A program made the translations under genes and the position numbers. A DNA stretch of 64,000 nt from a virus (lineage: Duplodnaviria > Heunggongvirae > Uroviricota > Caudoviricetes). Positions 3,402-58,864 of this stretch are shown here, piece after piece. Under the pieces are notes generated by a model, which did not search any database, had not been told where the DNA came from, and was given only the letters and a program-made list of their open reading frames with translations. The DNA lies in IMG/VR virus record IMGVR_UViG_3300021255_001602, positions 1 through 64,000 of that record. The stretch is one strand, 5' to 3'. How positions within the stretch are numbered: position 1 is the first letter of the stretch; each line of letters opens with the position of its first letter.

Positions 3402-3453
3402 GCAGGATGGATTTCATTGAAAGATGTAATTCGGATATAAGGAGGCATAGGAT

Positions 3454-3735
3454 ATGACGATAGACGAAGCGATTATTCATTGTGAGGAAGTGGCTATTCG
3501 AAACCTTAAAAATGAAAACAATGCAAAGTGTGTTCAGTGTGGAGAAGAGCATGTTCAACTTGCAAAATGGCTTAAAGAACTTAAGGACTATAAAAACAGG
3601 GAAGATATTGTGGAGGTGATCAGATGCCGTTATTGCAAGCATTTTATGTCGCCTCACGCTTGTTCACATGATGACGGCATGATTACAGCACAGTCGAACG
3701 GATTTTGCAGTTACGGCGAAAGGAAGGAAGAATAG
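3454..3735 (+). CDS. zinc-ribbon small protein (CVQCG...CRYCKH)
   Basis: 93 aa; RBS GGAGG 8 nt upstream. Confidence 0.45.
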   Translation: MTIDEAIIHCEEVAIRNLKNENNAKCVQCGEEHVQLAKWLKELKDYKNREDIVEVIRCRYCKHFMSPHACSHDDGMITAQSNGFCSYGERKEE

Positions 3736-4498: not shown

Positions 4499-4720
4499 AT
4501 GAAGAAAACTATTATAGCAATCATTGCATCTATCTTACTTGTTCTATCTCTCTGCGGATGGAAAGATGCTGAATATGGGTGGAGCAGGAATGATGATGTC
4601 ATAGTTTTTGTCGATGAGGCAACCAACGTTGAATATGTAGTAGTACGTGTGTCTCATGGTGTGGGCGTCTGTCCACGATATAATGCGGATGGAACGTTGA
4701 TGATCCACAAACAGAAATAA
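4499..4720 (+). CDS. putative lipoprotein (signal peptide plus lipobox LSLCG)
   Basis: MKKTIIAIIASILLVLSLCGW: positively charged N-terminus, hydrophobic core, L-S-L-C lipobox. Confidence 0.45.
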   Translation: MKKTIIAIIASILLVLSLCGWKDAEYGWSRNDDVIVFVDEATNVEYVVVRVSHGVGVCPRYNADGTLMIHKQK

Positions 4721-5245
4721 GGGGTAATGTATGGAATTTCTTAAAGCAATAATAGCTATGTGGCTATTTTCGGTTTTTATGTTGATTATGTTTTGTCATT
4801 CTACTAAGTTCCCGTCTCAGGATACACTAGTTTTGGCTCTTGCAATTGTGGCTGCGGGTGCATTAGCACATAGTGAAAAATAAGGAAAGAAATATATGAG
4901 TACTAAAAGCTGGGATTTAGTCATGTTTATTATAATTGTGCTTAATCTGTGGTGTTTAAATTTTAGAGAAAAAGATAATTTGGCAGGAATTCTAATGCAT
5001 ACAGGTGTTATTGTATTGGTAATTATTAATTTAGCATTAAATAATAGGGGGTAACATATGGCAAAAAAGAAGAAGCAGAAAATTAAGATTTATTTTTATG
5101 ATGGTAAGTCTGATATTATTCCACAGAAATATTGGGATGATTATGAAGTAAATGACGGGCTTTTTGTCGTAAAGAAGAATGAAGCATGGATCGCATTTTA
5201 TAATTTGAACATTATTGATTGTGTAGTGGTACATTGAGGTGTGAT

Positions 5246-6055
5246 ATGGGAACAAAATATATTATAGAGGTGGAAGACAAACCGTTTGAGCTGTTGAGTA
5301 AAGACGGTTTCACATCCGAAAAACTTTTTAGGGTAAAAGGGTTTAACAGTCTTGTGTTCGATTGGAATGGATTGAATATGCTAACGCCTTATACTGAATC
5401 CAATCTTGAGTTAATAAAGGAAAAGGCTCACACAAATGGGTACGGCGAAGGTTATCAAGATGGATACAGCGAAGGAATGAACGATTATTTACAAAACCCT
5501 GAAGTAAAGGAAGAATCGGATAGGGCATACGCACATGGCTACTCTGATGCAGAATCAAAGTTTAATGAAATTAGGAAAGAGGCATATGACAAAGGATTTG
5601 AGGACGGAAAAGAATTATGCCCTCTTCCAAAGGTTTGTCATAATAATGCTTATCAGAAGGGCTTGTCCGATGCTTGGGAGGCGGCGAGGAAGCTGTGGGA
5701 AATCGACATAAGTACATTACATAAGATTTTTTACAAAGAAACAAGAATGGACTGCTATATGTATTATACCGCCACTGACGTTGTTGCCAAAATCAAAGAG
5801 TATGAGGACAAGCAAGAGGAAATCAAGATTGGGAATGAAGTCAATGCGTTTGAAAAGAAACCGTTTATCGTGACAGGTTTTGGCTATGGCGACAATGAAG
5901 AAGACGTTTACTGTTACGGATTCGTAACGGAAAACGGGATATCCACAAGTGCCAAGAAGAATAGCTGCGTGAGGACAGGTCGCCATTTTCCTGAAATCGC
6001 CGCTATCTTTGAGAAAACGAGGAATGAGTCGAACGCACAAATTGACACTGAATAA
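5246..6055 (+). CDS. hypothetical protein (269 aa)
   Basis: long ORF; internal ATG 5246 likelier than track start 5219. Confidence 0.5.
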   Translation: MGTKYIIEVEDKPFELLSKDGFTSEKLFRVKGFNSLVFDWNGLNMLTPYTESNLELIKEKAHTNGYGEGYQDGYSEGMNDYLQNPEVKEESDRAYAHGYSDAESKFNEIRKEAYDKGFEDGKELCPLPKVCHNNAYQKGLSDAWEAARKLWEIDISTLHKIFYKETRMDCYMYYTATDVVAKIKEYEDKQEEIKIGNEVNAFEKKPFIVTGFGYGDNEEDVYCYGFVTENGISTSAKKNSCVRTGRHFPEIAAIFEKTRNESNAQIDTE

Positions 6056-6092
6056 TATTAAATTTAGTTGAACGAACAAGGGGGGATGATAT

Positions 6093-6437
6093 ATGATAAT
6101 TTCAGATCAACTTGAAGCACTAATAAAAAAATACGAGTGTGTACATATAGAACATGTAACTCCAAAAGAAGAATTGGATATTTGGGGTAAGACACTGAAC
6201 CCGCATAATTTAATTAATGAACATTCTAAGGATATTTATTATGACGATGAGATTGATCGTCTAACCATTAAGAGCGCTATGCATACCGCTATTATTAATG
6301 AGAAGGATGTGATTATTATTGAAGGATTTATTCCATCTAGAACGGTAATCTGTCCAAGTCGAGATTGGGAAGATGGTGTTACCGTTATTTTTGAACATAC
6401 AAATAATGCAACAACATCACTGGACTTCTTTAATTAA
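6093..6437 (+). CDS. hypothetical protein (114 aa)
   Basis: ORF track; RBS AAGGGGGGATGA. Confidence 0.45.
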   Translation: MIISDQLEALIKKYECVHIEHVTPKEELDIWGKTLNPHNLINEHSKDIYYDDEIDRLTIKSAMHTAIINEKDVIIIEGFIPSRTVICPSRDWEDGVTVIFEHTNNATTSLDFFN

Positions 6438-24562: not shown

Positions 24563-24946
24563 ATGGGCTATATAAATTATAATCCGAATCCCGCTCGTAA
24601 GTTAGTTGGTGATTGTGTTATACGAGCCATATCAAAAGTGACTGAACAATCTTGGGAAGATACTTATTTAGGTTTAATGTTACAAGGTTTTGCTATGAAT
24701 GACATGCCGTCCTCAAACGATGTTTGGGGGCGGTATTTATTTGAGCATGGATTCAGGAGATATATTATTCCTGACACATGCCCAGATTGTTATACGGTTA
24801 GGCAATTTTGTGCAGACAATCCTCAATTAACAGGTATTTTAGCCACTGGAACGCATGTTATCGCAGTAGGTGAAGGTGGAAATTATTTTGATACTTGGGA
24901 TTCGGGAGATGAAGTTCCAATTTATTATTGGAGAAGGGAAGATTAA
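24563..24946 (+). CDS. hypothetical protein with Cys...His arrangement (possible papain-like peptidase)
   Basis: GDCVIRAIS ... GTHVIAVGEGGNYFDTWD; speculative. Confidence 0.4.
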   Translation: MGYINYNPNPARKLVGDCVIRAISKVTEQSWEDTYLGLMLQGFAMNDMPSSNDVWGRYLFEHGFRRYIIPDTCPDCYTVRQFCADNPQLTGILATGTHVIAVGEGGNYFDTWDSGDEVPIYYWRRED

Positions 24947-25342
24947 ATGGCTTATAACAACAATGGATTTCCAATGAATTATCAGCAATATTATCCTTAT
25001 AGTTATACACAGGTGCAACCACAGATAAGTCAACCTGTACAACCAGCACAGAATGAAAGTGGTATTCTGTGGGTTCAGGGTGAAGCAGGTGCAAAATCTT
25101 GGGCTGTAGCACCGGGCAAGAGTGTAATGCTTATGGATAGTGAATCAAATACTTTTTATATTAAATCATCAGATAATAGTGGTATGCCAATGCCGCTTAG
25201 AATTTTTGACTATACAGAACGGACTCAACAGAATGGAGCGCCCACCGAAATTGCTCAGGCAGCTACGTCTCCTCAATATGTAACGAAAGAAGAACTTACT
25301 GAGATTCTTAGTGGCTTTGTTACAAGGAAGGAGATTGAGTGA
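24947..25342 (+). CDS. hypothetical Gln/Tyr/Pro-rich N-terminus protein
   Basis: MAYNNNGFPMNYQQYYPYSYTQVQPQISQPVQPAQ low-complexity N-term. Confidence 0.4.
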   Translation: MAYNNNGFPMNYQQYYPYSYTQVQPQISQPVQPAQNESGILWVQGEAGAKSWAVAPGKSVMLMDSESNTFYIKSSDNSGMPMPLRIFDYTERTQQNGAPTEIAQAATSPQYVTKEELTEILSGFVTRKEIE

Positions 25343-25343
25343 T

Positions 25344-25562
25344 ATGAACCCTTTGTTTAATTTACTAGGTGGACAGCAACAGATGCAGAATCCGATGACA
25401 AATATGTTTTCACAATTAAATCAGTTTAGGCAAACTTTTCATGGTGATCCTAAACAACAAGTTCAACAATTATTAAATAGTGGTAGGATGTCGCAAGCAC
25501 AGTACAATCAATTGTCACAGATGGCTACGCAAATTCAGAATATGTTGATTAACAGGAGATAA
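25344..25562 (+). CDS. hypothetical Gln/Asn-rich small protein
   Basis: MNPLFNLLGGQQQMQNPMTNMFSQLNQF...; ATG 25344. Confidence 0.35.
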   Translation: MNPLFNLLGGQQQMQNPMTNMFSQLNQFRQTFHGDPKQQVQQLLNSGRMSQAQYNQLSQMATQIQNMLINRR

Positions 25563-25644
25563 TTATATTTCGTTAAAAAACCATTGCGCAAGGTTTTCAA
25601 ATATTACAAACAGTCATAAATTAAATGTCAGGAGGAAATGTAAT

Positions 25645-25747
25645 ATGAGTTTAACAGATGGAAATGGTAACGATATGGTTATGCCTGTAACCCCAATGAA
25701 CGGGAATGGCGGCTCTGGCATGGGCTGGGGTGGTTCTGATGGATGGT
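25645..25747 (+). CDS. exon 1 of split Gly-rich/Cys-rich protein gene (MSLTDGNGNDMVMPVTPMNGNGGSGMGWGGSDGW)
   Basis: strong RBS CAGGAGGAAATG; Gly-rich reading frame continues thematically (GNGGWGGYGNGGG) ~735 nt downstream in another frame after an intron-like gap. Confidence 0.45.
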
Positions 25748-26480
25748 AAGGTAATTTGCCATCGTTAAATCGCGGGATTAAGCGGGAAGGCTGAAATGCT
25801 AATCCGAACCGAAGGCTACACTAAGTGTAGTCAGGGGCAACGCATAGAGAGTGAAAAGATATAATCTCTCCACGAGACCGCGACATTGTTTATATTAAAG
25901 GAGAATTAGTTATGGGATTTCCAACATTCACAATAGATGATTATGAAATTACTCGTAATGGAGATATTTTTAATAAAAGGAATGGGCATCAAGTTAAACC
26001 TCAACCAAACGGGAAGGGATATTTACGTGTATCAATTGGAGGTAAATTACGTTTTGTTCATCGATTGGTTGCTGAAAAATATATTCCTAATCCAGATAAT
26101 TTACCACAAGTGAATCATAAAGATGGCAATAAATTAAATAATTCAGTTGATAATTTGGAATGGGTCTCTAATCAACAAAATCGTGATCACGCAATAAAAA
26201 ATGGGTTGCATCTTTGTGGAGAAAAATGCTCTTGGGCAAAATTAACATGGGATGATGTTAATTATATTAGAGAGCACGCAGAATTGTCTAATGCCGAATT
26301 ATCCAAAAAATATCATGTTGCTGTTACAACTATTAGGGGTATAAGAAATTATAGGTCTTGGAAATATAAACAATGAAAAGATATGCTGAACTTATACGAA
26401 TGAAAAAGTATAAGAAGTAAAAGATAAAAAGCTTTTACGATAACAAAATGGGATTATCCTTCTCTTCCTGTTTGCATTTG
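25748..26480 (+). mobile_element. candidate group I intron carrying an HNH homing endonuclease ORF
   Basis: P-like GCGGGAAGGCTG and Q-like AATCCGAACC at ~25783-25809, S-like AAGATATAATCTC ~25856; HEG ORF in peripheral loop; proposed 5' exon ends in U (25747) and omega G at 26480 gives in-frame joining. Confidence 0.55.
25912..26376 (+). CDS. HNH homing endonuclease (HNH_3 type) with C-terminal HTH
   Basis: FVHRLVAEKYIPNPDNLPQVNHKDGNKLNNSVDNLEWVSNQQN is the canonical phage HNH_3 motif; intron-embedded. Confidence 0.85.
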   Translation: MGFPTFTIDDYEITRNGDIFNKRNGHQVKPQPNGKGYLRVSIGGKLRFVHRLVAEKYIPNPDNLPQVNHKDGNKLNNSVDNLEWVSNQQNRDHAIKNGLHLCGEKCSWAKLTWDDVNYIREHAELSNAELSKKYHVAVTTIRGIRNYRSWKYKQ

Positions 26481-27154
26481 GCAACGGTGGCTGGGGAGGC
26501 TACGGAAATGGTGGCGGTTCCATGGGCGCAGAGGTACAGCGTGGTTTTGATCAGTCTGCTGTAATGTCTGGTGTTTCTGGAATTCAGTCTGGTATTTCTG
26601 GTCTTTCTACTCAACTTTGTAATGGATTTGCTGGCGTTAGTGCTGGTTTTGCTAATGCTGAAACTGCGGCAACCGCTCGTCAGATGGCTAATATGAACCA
26701 AGCTTTTGCAGCTCAGACGGCTGTAACTCAGGGCATTAATCAGCTTGCGTCTCAATTTGCAGATTGCTGCTGTGAGAATAGATTAGCTTCTGCTAACCTT
26801 CAGAATGTTATTCAGTCTGAAAACTGTGCAGATAGAACAGCGCTGAATGATGGAATTCGTGATATTCTTCAGAATCAGAATGCTGGTATTCAGCGTATTC
26901 TTGATACTATGTGTCAGGATAAGATTGATGCTAAGAATGAGAGAATCGCAGACCTTGAAAGGCAACTTACAATGGCTAATCTGGCTGCGTCTCAGGGTGC
27001 TCAAACGGCTGCTATTCTGGCTAATAATGAAGCACAGACCGCAGCTCTTGAGAGATACCTCGCTCCTACTCCAGTTCCTGCATATACAGTTCCTAACCCG
27101 AATTGTTGCGGACAAAACTTTGGCACATGTGGATGTGGTTGTGGCGTAGCTTGA
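26481..27154 (+). CDS. exon 2 of split Gly-rich protein; C-terminus Cys-rich (NCCGQNFGTCGCGCGVA)
   Basis: ORF-track 26522..27154 extends in frame upstream to 26444; GNGGWGGYGNGGG continues exon-1 theme; exact 3' splice site inferred. Confidence 0.5.
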
Positions 27155-27167
27155 TGGAGGTGTAATT

Positions 27168-27632
27168 ATGGCAGAATATTTAACCAGAGATGCAGTTGAA
27201 AGCGTAGCGCTTAATGCTGCAATTCCTTTTGTGGATTCTATCCCCTGTAATCGTGGTTACATTTTTCACCAAAGTGGAACGGGGATTTTTGTTCTGCGTG
27301 GTATCGTTAATAATCCTACCGCATGTTTTGCACGCTATAATGTTGAATTTACAGGTAATATAGCAATTCCTGAAGGTGGAGCAATTACTCCTATAGCGAC
27401 CGCTATCGTGGTCTCAGGGGAAAGTCGTGATGGCAGTAGAAGTATTTTTACCCCTTCTGCCGTTGATGAATATGGGAATGTAACTTCAAGGGCTACTGTA
27501 GATGTTCCTCGTGGATGTTGTTTTACGGTTTCAGTAGAATATGTAAATGGCACTGTTAATGATTCGGCAACAACTCCTACTCCATTAATTAATGTGGTTG
27601 ATGGTAGTTTGAGTATTAGCAGAACGGCTTGA
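27168..27632 (+). CDS. hypothetical beta-rich protein (T/S/V/G-rich, CC pair)
   Basis: 154 aa; RBS GGAGGTG. Confidence 0.45.
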   Translation: MAEYLTRDAVESVALNAAIPFVDSIPCNRGYIFHQSGTGIFVLRGIVNNPTACFARYNVEFTGNIAIPEGGAITPIATAIVVSGESRDGSRSIFTPSAVDEYGNVTSRATVDVPRGCCFTVSVEYVNGTVNDSATTPTPLINVVDGSLSISRTA

Positions 27633-27648
27633 AAGGAGGGACAAGAGT

Positions 27649-28191
27649 ATGGGACTTTCTAAACATTATGATCAACTCAAAGAACTCCTTGATGATCAGA
27701 TTTGTAAGATTCTGAAAAAAGGTGATATTACTCCTCAGGAACTTGATAGTCTGTATAAAGCGTCTGCTATTATGCTTGACATGGAGACAGAAAAGGCTAT
27801 GAAAGAGTCTGGTGGTAGCGAAGAATATGAAATGAGTCACAGAGGTGATTCTTATAATAACATGGGTGGTAATTCTAATCATTATCCTTGGTTTATGTAT
27901 CATAACAATGATATGAGTCATCAAGGGAATTCTTATAGAATGCCAATGGATCAAATGAGCAATACTTATAACCATGCTTATGATGGTGCTTATGCAGGTG
28001 CGTATGATGCGTCTCAGGATAATGAATATTCTGAACGTAGAGGACGTAGCGCAAGGACTGGACGTTATGTAAGTCGTGATTCTGAAAAAGAACGCATGAT
28101 TGGAAAGCTTGAAGACATGATGGACAATGTTTCATCTGAGAAAGAGCGTAGAGCGCTCCAGCAATGTATAGATAAATTGGAACAACAGTAA
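27649..28191 (+). CDS. hypothetical protein with Tyr/His/Asn/Met-rich low-complexity centre
   Basis: HRGDSYNNMGGNSNHYPWFMYHNNDMSHQGNSYRMPMDQMSNTYNHAYDGAYAGAYD. Confidence 0.45.
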   Translation: MGLSKHYDQLKELLDDQICKILKKGDITPQELDSLYKASAIMLDMETEKAMKESGGSEEYEMSHRGDSYNNMGGNSNHYPWFMYHNNDMSHQGNSYRMPMDQMSNTYNHAYDGAYAGAYDASQDNEYSERRGRSARTGRYVSRDSEKERMIGKLEDMMDNVSSEKERRALQQCIDKLEQQ

Positions 28192-31000: not shown

Positions 31001-31077
31001 CGCGGGATGGAGAAGTTCGGTTTAACTCACTAGCTTCATGGGCTAGAGATTCGGGGGTTCAAATCCCCCTCCCGTTA
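31001..31077 (+). tRNA. tRNA with anticodon CAT (Met / possibly Ile2-lysidine type)
   Basis: cloverleaf: acceptor CGCGGGA/TCCCGTT (pos1 mismatch), anticodon stem CTAGC/GCTAG with loop TTCATGG, T-arm GGGGG-TTCAAAT-CCCCC; boundaries +/-2 nt. Confidence 0.55.
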
Positions 31078-48904: not shown

Positions 48905-51900
48905 ATGGCTCAAGGTACATTTGAAGGTGGTACAGTTACAATAAGAGGGGATGCTTCCCAATTAAAGAACGAATTGTTAGAAGTTAGTGAACTGTTAACC
49001 ACGTTAGAAAAAAGTAAGGTAAAATTAAAACCCGAAATTGATGTAAAAGATATAAAAAATCAAATCAACAAATTAGGACAGTATATGGAGGGTAGATTTG
49101 GAGCACTTGATTTTAGTAAAGTATATTCTGGTTTAATGTCGAGTGCTCAAAAGGATGGTAATAGATTTGCTAGTCAATTAAGCAGTACTATACGCAGCTT
49201 GAATTTATTAGATCAAGCTGTTAAACCAGAAGATGTAAGTAAACTAGCAGCGGCTTCAGCTGATGAAATTTCTAATCTTGTTGATGGAATAAATGGATTA
49301 TCACCTAAAACCAAACCAACTAGTAATTTAATTACTAAGAGATTACAAGCCCTTTATGATAAATATCCTAATGGTATCGAAGGATTAGGTGGTTCTGGTA
49401 AAGGTGGCGGTTTTGGTGCGTCTGAAGAAGCATTAAATAGAATTGGAGACACTTTAGATCGAATAGACGCTAATGTCCAAGGTATTACTGAATCTATTCG
49501 TAATGGTACTGGTACGTTAAAGGTAGCATCTCAAGACGCAGAAAAATATGCTGGAAGCATGGAAAAAGCTGAGACAGCGGCTAATAAGATGCAGACAGCA
49601 GTTGATAAGATGAAGCAAAAACAACAAAGTGTCAAAAATGCTTTAGAAGGTGAAAAAGTTGAAGCAGATTGGGATTGGACTTTACAGTATCTTAATGGGA
49701 CAAAAACGCCTACCTCGAAAAAGATTTCTAAACCTAAAACTCAAGTATCTGAAGCCCAACCTGAAATAAAAGTTTCTGCTCCTGATGTAACGCCGATAAA
49801 AAATGTGGTTAAAGCAGAAGAAGAGTTACATAATGCTGTGGAAGGTGCTACTGATGCTTTAAGAGAGCAGAATGACGCATTGCAAAACAACAGTATTTCC
49901 GTTCCTTCAACGGATAAAAAAGGATTAAGTTTTACAAAGGCAGTTGAACAAATTGGGGCACCAAAAGAAATTGCCAAATATTTAAAAGACCCGAAAAGTA
50001 TTAAGACCATTTTAAAAGGATTAGATGATGATAGTCTTAAAGGATTAGATATAGATCAGATACTTACTAATTTTTCAAATGATGATGATGCAAAATTAAA
50101 TAAAGCGTTAAATGATAAAATGAGAAGAGCTGCAATGTATGTTCAACAGATTGCGGCGATGTTCCCTGATGATTGGGAGGATATGTTTTCTGGTTTTTCA
50201 ATTTTTTCGCAAGGAGTAATGGGCAACTGGGCAGATGACATTGCTGCATTTTTTGAACAAACCAATGATTTAGTGGATGAAGCAACTGGTGATATTGATG
50301 ATAGTCGAGTAGAAGGATTGAAAATTACTTATGATAAATTAGTCGAAATAATGCAAGAATGGGCTGATTTATATAATACTGTTCGTCCAATGCTTGACAA
50401 AGGTATGTCTAAACAAGATATCGACACACGCTTAGATTTAATGAAGGGGTTTACTGAAGAAGATGTAAAAAGCAGTGAGTTGGGTACTTCTGGAACTGTT
50501 GATTTATATTCTCAAAAAATTGAGCAAACTCAACAACGACTTGATCAAATGGCTGAATTAAAATCATTATTAGATCAAGAAGAAGCGGCAGGACGAGTGC
50601 TGTCTGATCGGGAACTTATCTTTTTAAATAATTATCAAGAGTATGTAAATAAAGGCAACGCTATAGTTCAAAACGCAACAACAAGAAAAACCGCTTTAGA
50701 AAATCCTGAAGCTGTGCGTGAAGTGGCTCGTCAAAAAGTAGAACAAAGACAGCAAGAAAGTCAAATTAATTTTGAACAAGAAACATTAGAGGCAGCTAAG
50801 GCACAAGAAGAATTAGCAAAATCAGTAAGAGAGGCTAATAATGCCTTAAAGGAACAGAATGATGTTGGTAAAGATAATATCATGTATCACATGGGCAACT
50901 TGTCTGCTTCGAAAACTAAAGAAATTAGTCACCCATTTGGAGATGAATTTAAAGCGTGGTTTGAAGGGATTTATGATTCTGGAAGAGGTTGGGGTGATGG
51001 AACTGGTTTATATATGACCAGAAATAGAGATGAATACGCTCCCGAAATCGACCAGAAATCTTTAGAGAATTTTTATGCTATTGATACTTCAGGATTAAAT
51101 CTTTATGAAGCACACACAGAAGAAGCCGCTCAAGATTTTTACAATTTTATTCATCATATTGAACAATTATGTTTGCAAATTGGTACAGGAACAGAGAAAT
51201 TTGATGATAATTTAAAAGATATTGATTCAGAAAGTTTGTATACAGACTTTCAACGGGTATTTCCTAATATTCAGTTGTCATTTGAGCAATTTGATGATTT
51301 TATTACTAATATGTCTACAATGCTTGCTGATTCTGGACTTGATGAGAATGGTATTGCTGATGCTCAAAAATTAAATGCTTTTAAACAGAAATTCGGCAGC
51401 GATGATATAAAAACACGATTCCTTAAAATGCTTGGATATCAAGGTACAGATTTAAGTGGCACATCTTATGGTGGACTGCAATCAGGAAATGTGGTATTTG
51501 ACCCATTGGATAAAAATCGTATTATTGCTCAAGGTAAAAATATTGAGCAAGTTGCCCAAGAAGCTGTACAAAAAACAAAACAAGCATCAGAAGAAGCAAA
51601 GAAAAACGCAGATGATGCTAAAAAGGCGGCTGAAGAAGGTAAGAAAGCTGTAGAGGAAACTAAAGATAACAAAGAAAAAGCTGATGCCGTAATTCCTACT
51701 TCTGAATCTGCCCCTGATCTACAATCTACTATAGACAATGCTAATCAAGCAAATACCGAAACTGAAAAGCAGGTAATGTATGTAGAGCGTTCTTTCGATA
51801 CACTTAATAATTATTTAAGACAATATACTCAGGAATTAGCACAAAAGAAGCAAGAACGAGATGCGTTATTACAACAAATTCAATCTCTTCAAGATGGTAC

Positions 51901-54900
51901 TTTTGATACTTCTCAAAGGATGCCGGGTGCTACTACAACTTTTGATAGTGCAATAGAAGACAGTGGGCAATCAAGAGAAGACTTTTTGAAAGGAAAATTA
52001 GAATACGATACTCAACAATTAGAAACTATTGAACAACAGATCATAAAGAAACAGGCTCAAGTATTGCGTGTTAATAAAGAACATGCTGAAGTCGAGGAAT
52101 TAGTAAAGCAAGGATATGATATACAAGAAAAACAAAAGCCAGTCAAAAAAAATAAAAAAGGTGTTATTATTACTCAAGTAAAAGATGAAATTAAAGCTGA
52201 AGAAGATGATATCAAAGAAGCAGAAAAGATAATTGAAGAAGAAAGACAAGAAGCTGAAAGATTAGCGGCAGAAAAAAGAGCTAAAGACGAAGTTTTGCAA
52301 CAAATGATAAACGATGCCGGAGGGTCAACCAAAGGTCATAGTAAAAACAGTGAATTTAATTTTGGTGCTAAACTTGAGGGTGGTGAAACTGCAAGACAAA
52401 AACAACAAAGAGGTGGAGCGACTATTAGGGGTGGTAATCTTCCGAACTATAGCACACCGGGAACAAGAGGTGGTAATGCTAATACCGGTGTTTCAGGTGG
52501 AGCGCAACAAGTTAAAGTAGTTTATCAAGTAGAAACTACTTTGGAAGACGTTAAAGATACTAATAAACAATTAAAAGCTTTAAAAAAGACAAACACTGAA
52601 TTAACAACTTCAGCTAATCAAGCAGCTGACGCAATCCAGAAGGAAGCTGAAGCACTTAGCAAGATGGCTGAGACATTAACCACTATTGGAGAAATTGGCA
52701 GTAAAGTTGCGACTGTTAATCAAGAAATTAAAGATGTTACTACTAAAACTGTTAATCAGACCTTAACTCCTGAGCAATCCCAAATACCGACTAAACCCTT
52801 AACTAGGCCATCAGTAAAACCTAAAGCTACAGCAGTTAAAACATCCGATGAAATAAAAAAAACAAAAGAACAAATTGAACAATTACAAAAAGCAAAAGAC
52901 GATGCTGAACAGAACTTAAAGAGTATTACATTAGACGATTCCACATTTGATGTTGGCGAAAAATATCAAAAACGCAATGCTTATTCTCAAGTTAAACAAT
53001 GGGCAGATGATTTAAAAAAAGCGCAAGAAGAAGTTAATAGCTTAGGTAAAGATGCTGATCCACAAAAGGCACAAGAAGTATTAGACAATTACGATAAAAT
53101 GCGGATTGGTTTTTCTAAGGCATTTAAAATAGCAGACAATCTTGATGTTGGTTCTTCTAAAAATTTTGCAAAGCCAATGGAAGAATTTAAAGAACTGTAT
53201 CAGAATTTAGGAGAACCGAGTAGCGATTTTAAACAAGTCGAAGAACGATTCGCTCAGGCGTCCACTCAAGCTGCGGAACGGGCAAAAGCACAATTTGAAC
53301 AACAAAAGCAACAAGCTGAAGTAATAATGGCTAGATTGCAAGCACGTTTGGAAGAATTGCAATCTAAAGAAAAAACTACTGCCCCTGCTCCAGAAAAGCC
53401 GAAGGTAACTACTGAGCCGAAACCTTCTAAACCAGTTGAAAATAAACCTGATTTAGGCGGTAATCAGACAGGTAATGGTGTTCAAACTGAAGGTGATAAA
53501 GCCGTTGATGCAGCTGCTAAAATGCAAGAATTGGCTGATGCTAAAAAACAAGTAACTGAAGCTAATCAAAATTTAGCTCAGAGTGCTCAAAATACAACAA
53601 GTGCTCTTAATGGTGAAGGTGGGGCTGGTGCTAATGCGAGTAAAGCTTTTCAAGATCAGATTGATGCTCAGAAAAAGGCATTAGAAGAACAGAAAAAAAT
53701 AATAGAAGATCAGCAAAAAGCCATTGATGATTTACAAAAGAAACAAGAAGAGGCTACAAATAAAAAGATTGAAAATTTACAGAAAGAAAATGATGCTTTT
53801 ACTGCTCAACAACAACAAGATTTACAAAGATACAAGGATGCTGAATTACAGACCCAAATGATGCTTGCTCTTCAAAAACAAGCGGCAGAACAAGAGGCTA
53901 AAGTTCGTGAAGAGCAAGAAGCTAAAGCCGCACAAAAAGCTAAAGAGCAAGCAGAAAAGGCTGCTCAAAAAGCGCAGACCAAAGCTGATGATAAAGAATT
54001 AGCACAAGCATACGGAAATTATGGTAAAGATTTTAATGCTGTTCTTAATGCGAAATCAATTCAGGAATTTGATACGGCTGTCGCTCATTTAACAGAAACA
54101 GAGCGTATTTTCTGGGATGCAAGATTAAAGAATATGGGTGATAATTATACCCCGAATTCTAATATGTATGCTCAAAACGATTTACCAGCGGATTATAAAA
54201 AATCTACCGAAGCACAAACTAAAGGTTTAAAACAGAGGCAAATGCAAATTGCCGCATTTACCGCTTCATTAATTGCTGAAGCAGAAAAACAGCAAGCAGC
54301 CTTTGAAAAAATGGATACGGCTTATAAAACTAATACACAAAATCCTGCAAAGGGACATCTTGATTTTATTACTAGCACAAAAGTAGATGATAAGCAAGCC
54401 CGGTCTTATATGTCCGCTGTAGACGGTGTTACAGAATCTTTACAGAAATTGCAGTCTGTTGCAGAGTCAATGAAAAATGGCACCTTTGATTTTGGTGATA
54501 CTAATGCTTTAAGAGAATTGCTTGAGTTGCGCCAAACTTTAGATTCTCAAATGAGTACGCTAAAAGTCGAAGATAAAGGTTATAAGACTGCTCAATCCGA
54601 ATTAGAGGCAAATGCGAACAAGACTGCTGAAGGTTTAAAAAAATCACTTTCTGGAGTCGCGGATCAAATTGAAGGTATTCAAAAAAAGAGCAAAAAATTA
54701 ATTAATCCCGATCAAGAATACCAAGGACAGTTACAAGCGTCAGAGCAATTACTACAAGTAATCAAAGAACTTATTGCGGATATTAATAATAATCCTCTTC
54801 AGTTTATGGATGAAGGTAATGTTAAAGGGTTTAGATTATTAGTTGATGCAATGAAGGAAGATGTTGGTGATTTTCAAGATAGATTTGATTCTCAACAAGG

Positions 54901-56314
54901 TATTCAAGGACGTATCAACACTTATTTTACTAGTTATAAAGGTGCCTATACAAGCTTCTTTAGAGAAATAAAAGATTCCTTTAAGTCTCAGGCATTAGGC
55001 GAATTGCAGAATGAAATTGATCGTACATTTCAGACATTTGAAGATAGTATCACAAATCTTAATCGTGCTACTGGATTAAATCAAGGTGATTTTCTTAATA
55101 AAAATCTTAACACCAATGGTGGCAAAGCTACTGCTGGTCAGATTGAACAGCAACAAAAAATCAGAAATGCTATTGCTGAAAGTTATCGTGGATTAATTAC
55201 AGATATTTCTGATGAACTTACTAAAGTTCAAGACAGAATGGGTAACGTTTTAGGCGAAGGATTTTTAAGTCAGGATTACTTTAAGAATTTTGGTGAAAAA
55301 TTCACTGCTGGATTGGGTGATGCAAGTGAGTTTAAAGAATTTCAAAATAATGCACAAGGTGCTGTTGATTCATTAAATGAATTGCAAAAAATTCAAGAAC
55401 GCATGGCTAATGGCAGTCTTGATTTGACTCAACTAGCACCTGATAAATTAAAAGATCAGATTCAAGAAATTGTTAAATTATTTGCTGATCTTAATAAAAA
55501 TTATGCTGAAGTAGTTGAAAAGTCTAAGCAGTTTACTTTTGCTGATGTGGGGGATATTGAAAGACAAAGGGCGGGTATTACTCAGTTTATGAAGAGTAAT
55601 CCGGGTATCAGTGCTGATGCTAAAGCACAATTACAAGGATACTTTGATCAATTACAACAAGGAATAAGTCAAGCAGATTTTACAAAATTATCAGATGGAT
55701 GGAAACAAGTTGCGGATGCTGAACAAGCCGCTGGTAGGACTGGTGCTACATTTATGTCTGAACTCCAGACTCGTTTCAAATCCTTAGGCGCTTATCTCCT
55801 GTCCTTTGTTTCATTCTACAGAGTAATCGGTGTTTTCAAAGATGGTATTAATATTATCCATGAACTTGATGACGCTTTGACGGAAATGCAAAAAGTTTCA
55901 GATGAAAGTCTGAGTAGTTTAAGAGAATATCAAAAGAGTACATTTGATACAGCAAATCAGATCGGTACGACTGCGGCTCAGTTACAGACAAGTACTGCTG
56001 ATTGGATGAGGCTTGGTGAAGATTTACAAACAGCATCTCAATCTGCACAAACCGCAAACGTACTGTTTAATGTTTCTGAATTCGATAATATTAATGACGC
56101 AACAACTGCATTAGTTGCTATGAGTGCTGCGTATGCTGATGCGGAAGAAGGTATCGATAAGATGGACATCGTAGATAGATTGAATCTTATTGGTAATAAT
56201 TATGCAATAGCAACTGATGAATTGGCAACTGCTCTTCAGGATGGTGCAGCTGCATTACAAACAGCAGGGAATGATCTTGATGAAGCTATTGCTTTGACAA
56301 CAGCAGGTGAGATT
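48905..56314 (+). CDS. tail tape measure protein, exon 1 (~2470 aa; long coiled coils, Pro/Thr/Lys-rich linkers, conserved TMP core begins at its end)
   Basis: giant K/E/Q-rich coiled-coil ORF; C-terminal ...AMSAAYADAEEGIDKMDIVDRLNLIGNNYAIATDELATALQDGAAALQTAGNDLDEAIALTTAGEI resembles TP901-family TMP core; reading frame then hits a stop inside intron-like sequence. Confidence 0.6.
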
Positions 56315-56947
56315 AAATTGCCTGAATGCGTGGCGACACGTATATAGAACACATCTAATTGCTGGAAATCCTATTAGGATAATTAGCAGCGAAGCCATAT
56401 TGACATATGTTAATTAAAACGTATAATATATATGGAACGTTCAACGACTATTCCCGTGTCGGGGTTAGGACTAGAGAATACATATCCTAATCAATAGAAG
56501 TACGGCTCAATCGCAAATGGAGTGGGTGAGAATCCCTTAAATGGAAATGGTGTGCTCTCTTTTATTAAAGAGATGAAGATATAGTCTGATCCTACGAGTA
56601 ATCGTAGAAACAATATGTATTAATTAAATAAGCATATTAACAGTTATATCTTGCGAATATAACTGAACGTAAATGAATTTAATCACACAAGACGCCTCTA
56701 AAACGGGTAAACATTTGCCCTTAGATAACTATATCGGTTAAAAGCTGGGGACAGTTAAGACCGAGGTAACTCATAATAAAATGAGGCACCGTAGAGACTG
56801 CGGGGTATTATAGGTAACTATAATGCTGAAGTTATCCGTTATTTTAATAACGTAATATACAGTCCGATCTCACGATATAATCTAATTAATGAAACGTGAG
56901 ACATAGCCGGAAATGACTATGCGCCATATTTATATGGTCAGTAAGCG
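56315..56947 (+). mobile_element. candidate group I intron (TMP intron 1, ORF-less, ~630 nt)
   Basis: R-like GTTCAACGACTATTCCCGTG ~56446, 49-nt block AGTACGGCTCAATCGCAAATGGAGTGGGTGAGAATCCCTTAAATGGAAA 56499-56547, S element AAGATATAGTCTG ~56576; in-frame rejoining at U 56314 / G 56947 gives ...TTAGEI|KAESNRMKGVRTIALRL. Confidence 0.55.
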
Positions 56948-57280
56948 AAAGCTGAAAGTAACAGAATGAAAGGTGTTCGTACAATCGCCCTTCGTTTAAC
57001 AGGTACTAAAGAAGCGGCAGAAGAACTTGAAGAAATGGGTGAAGATACCTCTGACATGATAGTATCTCAATCCAAAATGCGTGAACTGATTATGAATGCT
57101 ACAAAGGTAGCTTCAAATAATTACAAAGGATTTGATATACAAGACGAGTTAGGTCGCTACAAATCAACTTATGAGATAATGTTGGGTCTCTCCCAAATCT
57201 GGGACGAAATTCGTCAAGCCGACCTTAAAACAGGCGATAACCGTCAGAACTTATTGCTTGAATCAATTGCAGGTAAATTT
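56948..57280 (+). CDS. tail tape measure protein, exon 2 (ORF-track 56966..57340 region; ...GVRTIALRLTGT...LLLESIAGKF)
   Basis: TMP-core-like sequence continues in frame with exon 1; no RBS; ends in intron. Confidence 0.55.
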
Positions 57281-58864
57281 TTGCCTGAAATATATGGAAA
57301 CATATATTTTAGAATGCGTTTAAATGCGTTGATTACCTAAAGCCTTATGCCACAATATAGGAGAAATCACTATATGAAGGATTAACAAGTTAAGGATGAT
57401 ACAATGGTTAATTCGCAGCGAAGCGCCTAAGTATGTTTTAATTAAATATATATGGTGAACGTTCAGAGACTATCCCCGTGTAGGGGTCTTAATAGACCAA
57501 TAGGAGTACGGCTCAATCGCAAATGGAGTGGGTGAGAATCCCTTAAATGGAAACAGCGCATATCCTAACAGATCAAGCTGAGGATAAAGAAATAGTCCGT
57601 GCTTGTGTGAAAGCATAAGAATAATGAATATTAATAGACAAGGAGCAATTATGGCAACAAGAATTTCAAAAGAATTAATTCAAATAATGTATGAAAAATA
57701 TGATAGTGGAATGACTATTGTTGATATATCTAAAGAAACAGGTGTAGGACAAGATACTGTTCGTAAATATATACGAAAAAGTGGACGCAAGCGTAGACCG
57801 TCAATAGAAAAACGGATCGGAGAAGAAGGAATTAAACAGATATGTAATTTATATACTCAAGATGCAATGGATGAGATACGTAGGCTATATCCTGATCTTA
57901 CTAAACAGCAAATATATAGCATTGCCAGTCGGCATCAAGTTAAAAATACTAATTATTTTTGGAGTCAAGAAGAGGTAGAATTTCTAGTTAATAATTTTGG
58001 CATTCTGTCTTATGATGAAATAGCGGCTCATTTTAATAATAGACATAACGTAAAAGCTATATCTACTAAAGCTATAAAACTTGGATTAACGACCTCTCAA
58101 CATTGGACTAAAGAAGAAGAGGATATTATAATTAAATATTACCCTCATATTCCATTAAACGAGGTGTTACAAATGCTTCCTCGCAGAAGTGCAAATGGTT
58201 TAAAGATACACGCTCTAAAAATGGGTGTTAAAGGGCTACAATATCTTTCTGAAAAATATTCAGATGAACAAAAACAATTTATTCTCGATAACTATGTGCT
58301 AATGTCTGACGAAGAAATTGCAAAAGTACTTGGTAAAACACCAGTTGGAATAAAAGAACAAAAACGGAAACTTGGCATTTATCAATTTAATAAAGAATAT
58401 CAAGGGTATGAAAGTTTGAGTAAATTACTTAGAGGTCAAATATCGACTTGGAAAAGATTAAGTTGTGAGCAGTGTGGTTATCAATGTGTTTTAACTGGGT
58501 CTAAAAACTTTGAAATACATCATTTATATAGTTTCAATAAGATATTGCAAGAAGCATTTGAAAGATGTAATGAACAAGGACTATTAAAATCTTATAATAT
58601 AGAAGATTACACCAAAGAAGAGTTGGATGTTATTATTCAACTTTTTTTAGATATACACGAAACCTATCCTTTAGGCGTATGTGTTGAAAAAGACTTACAT
58701 AAATTATTTCATGATATTTATGGTACAGGTGGCAATGTGCCAGAACAATGGGATGATTTTGTAAACAGATATAAAAAAGGTGAGTTTAATAATGTAAAAG
58801 CATCTTAGTTAATATTCATTATTAGGTAGATTTGCGACCTACCTTAACATTTCAAAAAAATAGG
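57281..58864 (+). mobile_element. candidate group I intron (TMP intron 2, ~1.58 kb) carrying an HNH homing endonuclease
   Basis: R element GTTCAGAGACTATCCCCGTG ~57468, identical 49-nt block 57505-57553, S element AAGAAATAGTCCG ~57590, then HEG ORF; exon 3 frame open from 58826. Confidence 0.55.
57651..58808 (+). CDS. intron-encoded HNH homing endonuclease with multiple N-terminal HTH repeats
   Basis: C-terminal CEQCGYQCVLTGSKNFEIHHLYSFNKILQE...H = C-x2-C...HH...N...H HNH motif; N-terminal repeated helix-turn-helix-like segments; ATG 57651 with AAGGAG RBS. Confidence 0.7.
   Translation: MATRISKELIQIMYEKYDSGMTIVDISKETGVGQDTVRKYIRKSGRKRRPSIEKRIGEEGIKQICNLYTQDAMDEIRRLYPDLTKQQIYSIASRHQVKNTNYFWSQEEVEFLVNNFGILSYDEIAAHFNNRHNVKAISTKAIKLGLTTSQHWTKEEEDIIIKYYPHIPLNEVLQMLPRRSANGLKIHALKMGVKGLQYLSEKYSDEQKQFILDNYVLMSDEEIAKVLGKTPVGIKEQKRKLGIYQFNKEYQGYESLSKLLRGQISTWKRLSCEQCGYQCVLTGSKNFEIHHLYSFNKILQEAFERCNEQGLLKSYNIEDYTKEELDVIIQLFLDIHETYPLGVCVEKDLHKLFHDIYGTGGNVPEQWDDFVNRYKKGEFNNVKAS

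Follow-up and report, generated by a model that had tools for sequence, protein, structure and literature searches.

The closest known counterparts of the element reported here are the subgroup IA introns of phages, such as those in td, nrdB and sunY of T4, in orf142 of Staphylococcus phage Twort and in the Bastillevirinae (PMC11878797; PMC3984707), which have an extra hairpin between the 5' strand of P7 and the 3' strand of P3, an extended 3' domain with P9 and P9.1, and an open reading frame (ORF) in a peripheral loop whose 3' end extends into the core, and which are transferred between related phages. A second counterpart is the group I intron that interrupts the DNA polymerase gene of Bacillus phage SPO1 and encodes the small HNH endonuclease I-HmuI. 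Here we describe an intervening sequence in a stretch of 64,000 nucleotides (nt) from a virus of the Caudoviricetes (positions 1 to 64,000 of IMG/VR record IMGVR_UViG_3300021255_001602), referred to below as the window. We conclude, with a probability of about 0.9, that the 703 nt at 25748-26450 constitute a mobile group I intron of IA-like architecture that interrupts a gene for a 268-residue protein and carries an I-HmuI-like HNH endonuclease gene in the loop of P8; this and all other features of the locus lie on the + strand.

The limits of the insertion were determined from two syntenic contigs, L002 and the shorter L003, in which the same gene is uninterrupted and the exon DNA is closely similar to that of the window. 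Both read ...GGTTGGT|GGATTAT... at this point (the continuous stretch in L002, at approximately 6090-6120, is ...GACGGTTGGTGGATTATATTA...), and in the DNA alignment the window has exactly 703 extra bases, placed between the T and the GG of TGG-TGG-ATT. The boundaries 25748-26450 cannot slide, because the flanking bases differ. Exon 1 (25645-25747, with a ribosome-binding site GGAGG at about 25632-25636) thus provides 34 codons and the first base of Trp35, and exon 2 (26451-27154) opens with the GG that completes Trp35, continues with IILLFLFAFGNGGWGGY... and runs to the Cys-rich C-terminus. The UAA stop of the 34-codon ORF (25747-25749) is made up of the base that ends exon 1 and the two bases that open the intron. 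Synteny between L002 and the window takes in a GH25 lysin, three small genes, the target gene, two further small genes, and genes for PhoH, ClpP, a YonJ-like and a YonG-like protein. A megablast search of GenBank phage records with 24900-27700 gave no match, and the phage is an uncultured one.

A preliminary description of this DNA, made from the sequence without database searches, had proposed that a Gly- and Cys-rich gene is split here by an HNH-encoding group I intron. The kind of element proposed is upheld, as are the 34-codon ORF at 25645-25749 with its strong ribosome-binding site, the resumption of the Gly-rich theme downstream in another frame, the HNH_3 endonuclease in the gap, and a 5' splice site after U25747, which matches the start of the insertion as fixed by comparison with the intron-less alleles. 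The 3' junction has to be moved: it had been placed after G26480, and the true end is G26450 (omega-G), 30 nt upstream.

Joining 25747 to 26451 (...GGA UGG U|GG AUU AUC..., that is GGATGGT|GGATTATCC) yields 268 residues, compared with the roughly 260 first proposed, and restores the conserved GW-WIILLFLFAFG-NGGWG. The codons from 26451 onward are GG ATT ATC CTT CTC TTC CTG TTT GCA TTT GGC AAC, such that WIILLFLFAFG is read in the exon 2 frame at 26451-26483, and all 21 aligned uninterrupted homologues have ...GGxxGW-WIILLFLFAFG-NGGWG.... Uninterrupted homologues, which the preliminary description had named as a check, are available both as these proteins and as the L002 and L003 contigs, with residues at the junction that differ from those it had given. 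U25747 | G26451 is the only junction that restores the frame together with the invariant Trp-Trp and the hydrophobic segment of the 21 homologues. The base at -1 is U and the final intron base is G, which is what group I chemistry demands, and a G precedes exon 2 in every readable same-site junction (the window, L005, L009, L013, L016, L022, L024, L047, L121 and L145). The junction k-mer expected of spliced RNA is TCTGATGGATGGTGGATTATCCTTCTC.

The fold was derived from an alignment, A2, that comprises 42 distinct ORF-less relatives together with the window intron minus its P8 loop (43 sequences). Without guidance, RNAalifold returns P3, P4, P5, P6, P6a, a P7.1-type hairpin, P8, P9 and P9.1, with compensatory changes in 39 of 46 pairs. 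With P7 added as a pseudoknot, compensatory changes are found in 41 of 53 pairs and 96.8% of cells pair, as against 34-40% after a slide of the partners by 1-3 columns; covariation scores 0.634, compared with at most 0.103 for slid partners, and none of 500 shuffles reaches the observed values. The minimum free energy (MFE) fold of the ORF-deleted window intron has a z-score of -7.65 and reproduces the nested helices. Profiles built from relatives without the window sequence have just two matches in the 64 kb, one for each half of the core: 25768-25887, with E=1.6e-33, and 26374-26445, with E=1.7e-14. The covarying fold is a group I layout with a P3/P7 pseudoknot, in the order P1, no P2, P3-P4-P5-P6-P6a-P7-P7.1-P3'-P8-P7'-P9-P9.1.

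At the 5' end, P1 (25742-25763; from the sequence and the MFE fold) pairs the exon sequence GAUGGU (25742-47) with the internal guide GCCAUC (25758-63), with a wobble pair U25747·G25758 at the splice site, and it covaries among same-site relatives as GUUGGU/GCCAAC, CAUGGU/GCCAUG and CUUGGU/GCCAAG. The 5' strand of P10 (25750-25757, GGUAAUUU) directly adjoins the guide and forms 8 bp with the start of exon 2 (26451-26458, GGAUUAUC); this pairing is kept where the exon sequence has changed, as AGAUU/AAUCU in L005 and GGAUU/AAUCC in L024. P3 consists of UCGCGG (25770-25775) and CCGCGA (25878-25883), as predicted by RNAalifold, with all six pairs compensatory and 98.8% of A2 cells paired. P4 and P5 occupy 25783-25806 (P4 25783-86/25803-06, P5 25789-91/25798-25800, with A-rich J4/5 and J5/4), and here the second P4 pair changes from G-C to U-A (23:20) and P5 from GGC/GCU to CCC/GGG. 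The classical 'P' (GCGGGAAGGCTG) and 'Q' (AATCCGAACC) strings noticed in the preliminary description are real, and correspond to the P4/P5 and P4'/P6 strands of this covariation-supported core, and an S box is present in J8/7. P6 (25808-10/25834-36) and the P6a hairpin (25814-21/25825-32), which together span 25808-25836, show compensatory changes in three of three and six of seven pairs respectively.

The 5' strand of P7 (25838-25845) pairs with 26383-26388 through C25838-G26388, A25840-U26387, G25842-C26386, C25843-G26385, A25844-U26384 and U25845-A26383, with A25839 and C25841 bulged. Every cell pairs (43/43 sequences), the second pair being A-U in 25 and G-C in 18, and in relatives that share a 29-mer across the 'P' and 'Q' boxes the inner four pairs read GCAU/AUGC, GCGU/ACGC, GACU/AGUC or GAAU/AUUC. 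G25842-C26386 is invariant and directly follows a bulged base, and we infer that it is the guanosine-binding pair. Between the P7 5' strand and P3' lies the P7.1-type hairpin (25847-25870, 25847-51/25866-70), with compensatory changes at five of its five pairs and pairing in 100% of cells. P8 (25884-26375; MFE fold of the ORF-deleted version) is a 13-bp stem of 25884-25896 with 26363-26375, and holds the endonuclease gene in its loop; ORF-less relatives have a short hairpin in the same place, with its five outer pairs all compensatory. After the stem comes the classical 'S' box, AAAAGAUAU: J8/7 (AAAAGAU, 26376-82) leads into the P7 3' strand (AUGCUG, 26383-88), the two together spanning 26376-26388, and AAAAGAU(AU) matches the classical AAGAUAU, the RF00028 consensus at this point being 'AAGAUAUAGUC'.

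P9 (26391-97/26408-14) and P9.1 (26417-23/26432-38) complete the 3' domain at 26391-26438, with six of seven pairs compensatory in each, at least 98.7% of cells paired, and a conserved P9.1 loop, AUAAAAAG. Both this loop, (A)UAAAAAG, and the GAUAAC of the 3' tail (A2 columns 253-260 and 269-275; window 26424-26431 and 26439-26445) are invariant or nearly so in all 43 members of A2, though unpaired in the model, and they are probably tertiary-contact or P9.0-type elements. A closing helix of GUUA (25764-67) with UAAC (26441-44), suggested by the MFE fold, was dropped; its 5' partner is neither conserved nor covarying in A2.

The ORF in the P8 loop (25912-26376) is intact and encodes an I-HmuI-like HNH homing endonuclease of 154 residues, with matches to Pfam HNH_3 (PF13392; E=4.5e-11, 42.6 bits against a cut-off of 24.8) and to phrog_59 (7.8e-45). 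Its sole relative of solved structure is I-HmuI (PDB 1U3E; E=7.6e-10 over residues 10-99), an enzyme that nicks one strand. The ribosome-binding site, AAAGGAG at 25898-25904, lies within the P8 loop, and the last codons together with most of the TGA stop (26374-76) make up the 3' strand of P8. Because the end of the ORF forms this strand, ribosomes translating the endonuclease would be expected to keep the core from folding, so that a given RNA molecule should serve either as message for the enzyme or as ribozyme. Many of the relatives with an ORF have, in the P8 loop and upstream of the endonuclease gene, a box like TATAAT or TGnTATAAT (e.g. GCTATAAT, GATATAAT and TGTATAAT; seen in L009, L015, L016, L024, L005, L007 and L012), which suggests that the gene may have a promoter of its own in those relatives. 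The window copy is without a TATAAT-type stretch, the ribosome-binding site following directly after P8.

The distribution of the intron bears on its mobility. Of 143 loci of the intron family, 16 have the interrupted gene beside the intron by tblastn. Twelve of these, in divergent phage contigs, have the same intron with an orthologous full-length HNH gene whose product is 60-69% identical to that of the window, and wherever their junction can be read the insertion is at the same codon. Eleven of them could be scored for the interrupted protein (the twelfth, L012, ends too early), which has 29-59% identity to that of the window, and only 29-33% in four (L011, L013, L047 and L121); the corresponding values for the interrupted protein and the HNH protein are 29% vs 60.5% in L011, 33% vs 63.6% in L013, and 31% vs 64% in L047. 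At the same site, L107, L130 and L139 have copies without an ORF. Same-site carriers, ORF-less copies and close intron-less alleles together make up the pattern that homing, combined with gain and loss of the endonuclease gene, is expected to leave. By analogy with I-HmuI, the endonuclease would, during co-infection, cut alleles of this gene that are without the intron, such that the intron is copied into them. The occupation of one codon of a poorly conserved gene across divergent phages suggests that homing tracks a short conserved target, here the stretch encoding Trp-Trp-Ile-Ile at the start of a predicted transmembrane helix.

We envisage that a single pre-mRNA is transcribed from upstream of 25645 and that exon 1 base-pairs at its end with the internal guide GCCAUC, whereupon an exogenous guanosine bound in P7 would attack after U25747. 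The terminal G26450 would then replace the guanosine in P7 with P10 aligning exon 2, and ligation of the exons would give the 268-residue protein. On unspliced RNA, translation would stop at U|AA and produce a 34-residue peptide only, and the endonuclease would be translated from its own ribosome-binding site in the P8 loop.

A number of observations weigh against the reading of 25748-26450 as an IA-like group I intron. Splicing itself is so far a prediction. The scan with RF00028, named as a check in the preliminary description, found no match at the intron, either for the window at the gathering score or for 25500-26700 at E<=10; none of 28 ORF-less relatives matches at the gathering score, nor does the one checked at E<=10; and the same model readily detects introns elsewhere in the window, one at 79 bits and one at 70. 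Within the fold, the first P6 pair of the window, A25808·G25836, is mismatched, and the two bulged bases of P7 and its A-U second pair leave the guanosine-binding pair a matter of deduction. The architecture, moreover, is described only as IA-like, with no subgroup (IA2, IA3 or other) given. This label was chosen because of the extra hairpin between the P7 5' strand and P3', a single covarying hairpin (25847-70) where the IA2-type introns of the same window carry P7.1/P7.2 in the RF00028 alignment; the intron presumably resembles IA3.

In view of the RF00028 negative, the structure was tested directly, as described above. A recent study of Bastillevirinae introns (PMC11878797, 2025) reports that phage introns are too thinly represented in the models of Rfam and GISSD, and that IA2 is a heterogeneous 'subgroup', and as that study calls the models incomplete for phage introns, we read the negative as a gap in model coverage, rather than as biology. 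Taken at face value, the scan leads to a wrong rejection of the intron.

Among the alternatives, one keeps the intron and extends it to 26480, as first proposed, with a product of 258 residues (...SDGW-C-NGGWGGY...). This junction keeps the frame, though only because the shift of 30 nt is divisible by 3, and its last intron base, 26480, is a G; but it deletes WIILLFLFAF, ten conserved residues that are encoded in frame at 26451-26480 and present in 21 of 21 aligned homologues, and it introduces a Cys that all 21 are without. The insertion ends at 26450 when compared with the intron-less alleles, the P10 partner is 26451-26458 and not 26481 onward, and the match to phrog_16490 falls to 113.5 bits from the 153.2 of the corrected product (profile positions 5-280 of 286; exon 2 alone gives 97.7), and we thus regard an end at 26480 as extremely improbable. 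A different kind of intervening element is just as improbable, as nothing beyond the interruption of the gene speaks specifically for one: a group II intron is opposed by the lack of both a reverse transcriptase ORF and any group II match in Rfam, an intein is excluded by in-frame stops, 703 nt is far above the 50-nt coding gap described for the T4 ribosome bypass in a preprint, and the covariation-supported fold is that of a group I intron with its P3/P7 pseudoknot.

More weight, although still little, is due to the proposal that the insertion is decayed or incompetent for splicing, with the gene being a pseudogene or giving two polypeptides (34 residues, and 210 residues from M26522) and the HNH gene being free-standing. 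Phage genes split by free-standing endonucleases are known, splicing is so far only predicted, RF00028 gives no match, and a GGTGG-like string lies before the ATG at 26522. That string, however, consists of Gly codons that are equally present in the intron-less alleles, and the Met that begins the 210-residue ORF is internal and conserved in uninterrupted homologues. The preliminary description had considered that 26522 could have a promoter and ribosome-binding site of its own; a promoter and terminator scan found no promoter-like site between 26376 and 26522, with counts across the region at chance level. A product starting at 26522 would be without the N-terminal region and the only transmembrane segment, both conserved in all homologues, and the window copy has every family-consensus helix intact, an uninterrupted HNH ORF, P1, P10, U at -1 and the terminal G. 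A decayed insertion is thus unlikely, and a mobile group I intron at 25748-26450 remains the reading that we prefer.

The interrupted protein belongs to phrog_16490, a family without assigned function. A search with the G26480-junction product returned at least 8000 homologues, many of them uninterrupted, about 260-290 residues long and up to 85% identical, and the protein is thus a member of a very large gut-phage family; an uninterrupted homologue is found in the cultured Butyrivibrio phage Ceridwen (QHJ73768). The corrected spliced protein is 93% identical to P0001, the product of L003, and features a Gly-rich N-terminus, one hydrophobic helix, long helices and a Cys-rich tail. An AlphaFold2 model of P0001 is of low confidence (mean predicted local distance difference test score 46, predicted template modelling score 0.18), its best-predicted part being the hydrophobic helix at residues 35-45, and WIILLFLFAF is the only predicted transmembrane helix. 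The protein is accordingly predicted, with the low confidence of that model, to be a mostly helical single-pass membrane protein with a Cys-rich C-terminus. Pfam yields only sub-threshold coiled-coil noise and NCBIfam nothing, and a PDB profile search gives only weak coiled-coil matches (E>=0.03). Some distant matches in crAss-like phages bear labels such as 'spike protein' or 'viral fiber', which are not trusted; these matches cover the C-terminal half only. In both the window and L002 the gene lies four genes downstream of the GH25 endolysin, a proximity that is suggestive but no proof. For annotation, the consequence of the intron is that gene callers would report a 34-residue ORF, an HNH gene and an N-terminally truncated 210-residue ORF in place of the 268-residue product.

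The intron has relatives well beyond this site. The 29-mer across the 'P' and 'Q' boxes is exact in 26 IMG/VR contigs and a gapped 3' pattern is found in more than 120, and the family has more than 140 IMG/VR loci; many of these introns are ORF-less, with a length of about 230-260 nt and a P8 that is a short hairpin. Traits of the putative lineage are the absence of P2 in many members (the window intron included), one P7.1 hairpin only, two bulges in P7, and the invariant L9.1 and 3'-tail motifs. Unannotated copies occur in cultured phages of Listeria, Exiguobacterium, Staphylococcus, Bacillus and Clostridium. One such core lies in Exiguobacterium phage vB_EauM-23 (L148, MH844558.1) at 2501-2623, immediately after the point where the terminase large subunit is annotated to end and ahead of an HNH gene (terminase gene at around 5286-6260 of MH844558), and another in Listeria phage LIS04 (L147, OQ999172.1) at 2501-2633, amid 'endonuclease', Hint-domain and terminase fragments; weaker matches are seen in Staphylococcus phage vB-SscS-F1, Bacillus phage BpSp and Clostridium perfringens phage vB_CpeS-1181.

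We put forward only tentatively, as something rather less likely to hold than to fail, that these introns form a large coherent group I lineage previously undescribed as such, lying outside the current subgroup models and invisible to RF00028. If this is true, the annotation of group I introns in Firmicutes phages falls systematically short. A covariance model seeded with the A2 alignment could recover hundreds of phage introns that now lack annotation, some of them in cultured phages. A mobile HNH-carrying group I intron is of a familiar kind, and existing knowledge of the group I mechanism is unchanged by the finding; the intron belongs to a widespread lineage that the standard Rfam model misses.

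Other features of the window lie at some distance from this locus. A tRNA gene at 31001-31077 (RF00005, 46 bits) is situated between genes for an exonuclease-like protein (phrog_284) and a YonG-like protein. The segment 48905-58808 begins with a tape-measure-like ORF of more than 2480 residues (48905-56347) that runs into an RF00028 intron at 56299-56608; this is followed by a 124-residue ORF piece (56966-57340), a second RF00028 intron (57264-57619), and a 401-residue ORF (57603-58808) that overlaps the end of the second intron and has helix-turn-helix-like repeats and an HNH-like C-terminus. The tape measure gene looks to be split by two IA2-type introns. A pair of introns of the two kinds is also seen in contig L065, in which a family intron at 3416-3659 is followed, about 1 kb downstream, by a second intron at 4606-4821 that scores 100.5 bits with RF00028, so that the co-occurrence of the two lineages extends to other phages.

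The window intron can be set against three described or recognizable kinds. The two RF00028 introns at 56299-56608 and 57264-57619 share its genome and are of the same general kind, and they likewise interrupt a gene of the structural module, the tape-measure-like ORF, but they belong to another lineage that scores 79 and 70 bits with RF00028 and is missed by the sequence profiles of the 25748 family. The intron of SPO1 is similar in encoding a small HNH protein with the same beta-rich N-terminal part and HNH core, whereas its window counterpart resides in a gene for a predicted membrane protein instead of a DNA polymerase, and its ribozyme is of a different lineage, with no RF00028 match and with family profiles that match nothing else in the window. 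From the subgroup IA introns of T4, Twort and the Bastillevirinae it differs in having one P7.1-type hairpin where those have P7.1 plus P7.2 (some relatives of the window intron being P7.1/7.1a-like), in the absence of P2 and the two bulges in P7, in an 'R' box unlike the consensus GUUCAxAGACUA, and in belonging to a family that as a whole has no match to RF00028; it shares with them an apparently equivalent extra hairpin between the P7 5' strand and P3', the extended 3' domain of P9 and P9.1, the placement of an ORF in a peripheral loop with its 3' end reaching into the core, and the probable transfer between related phages.

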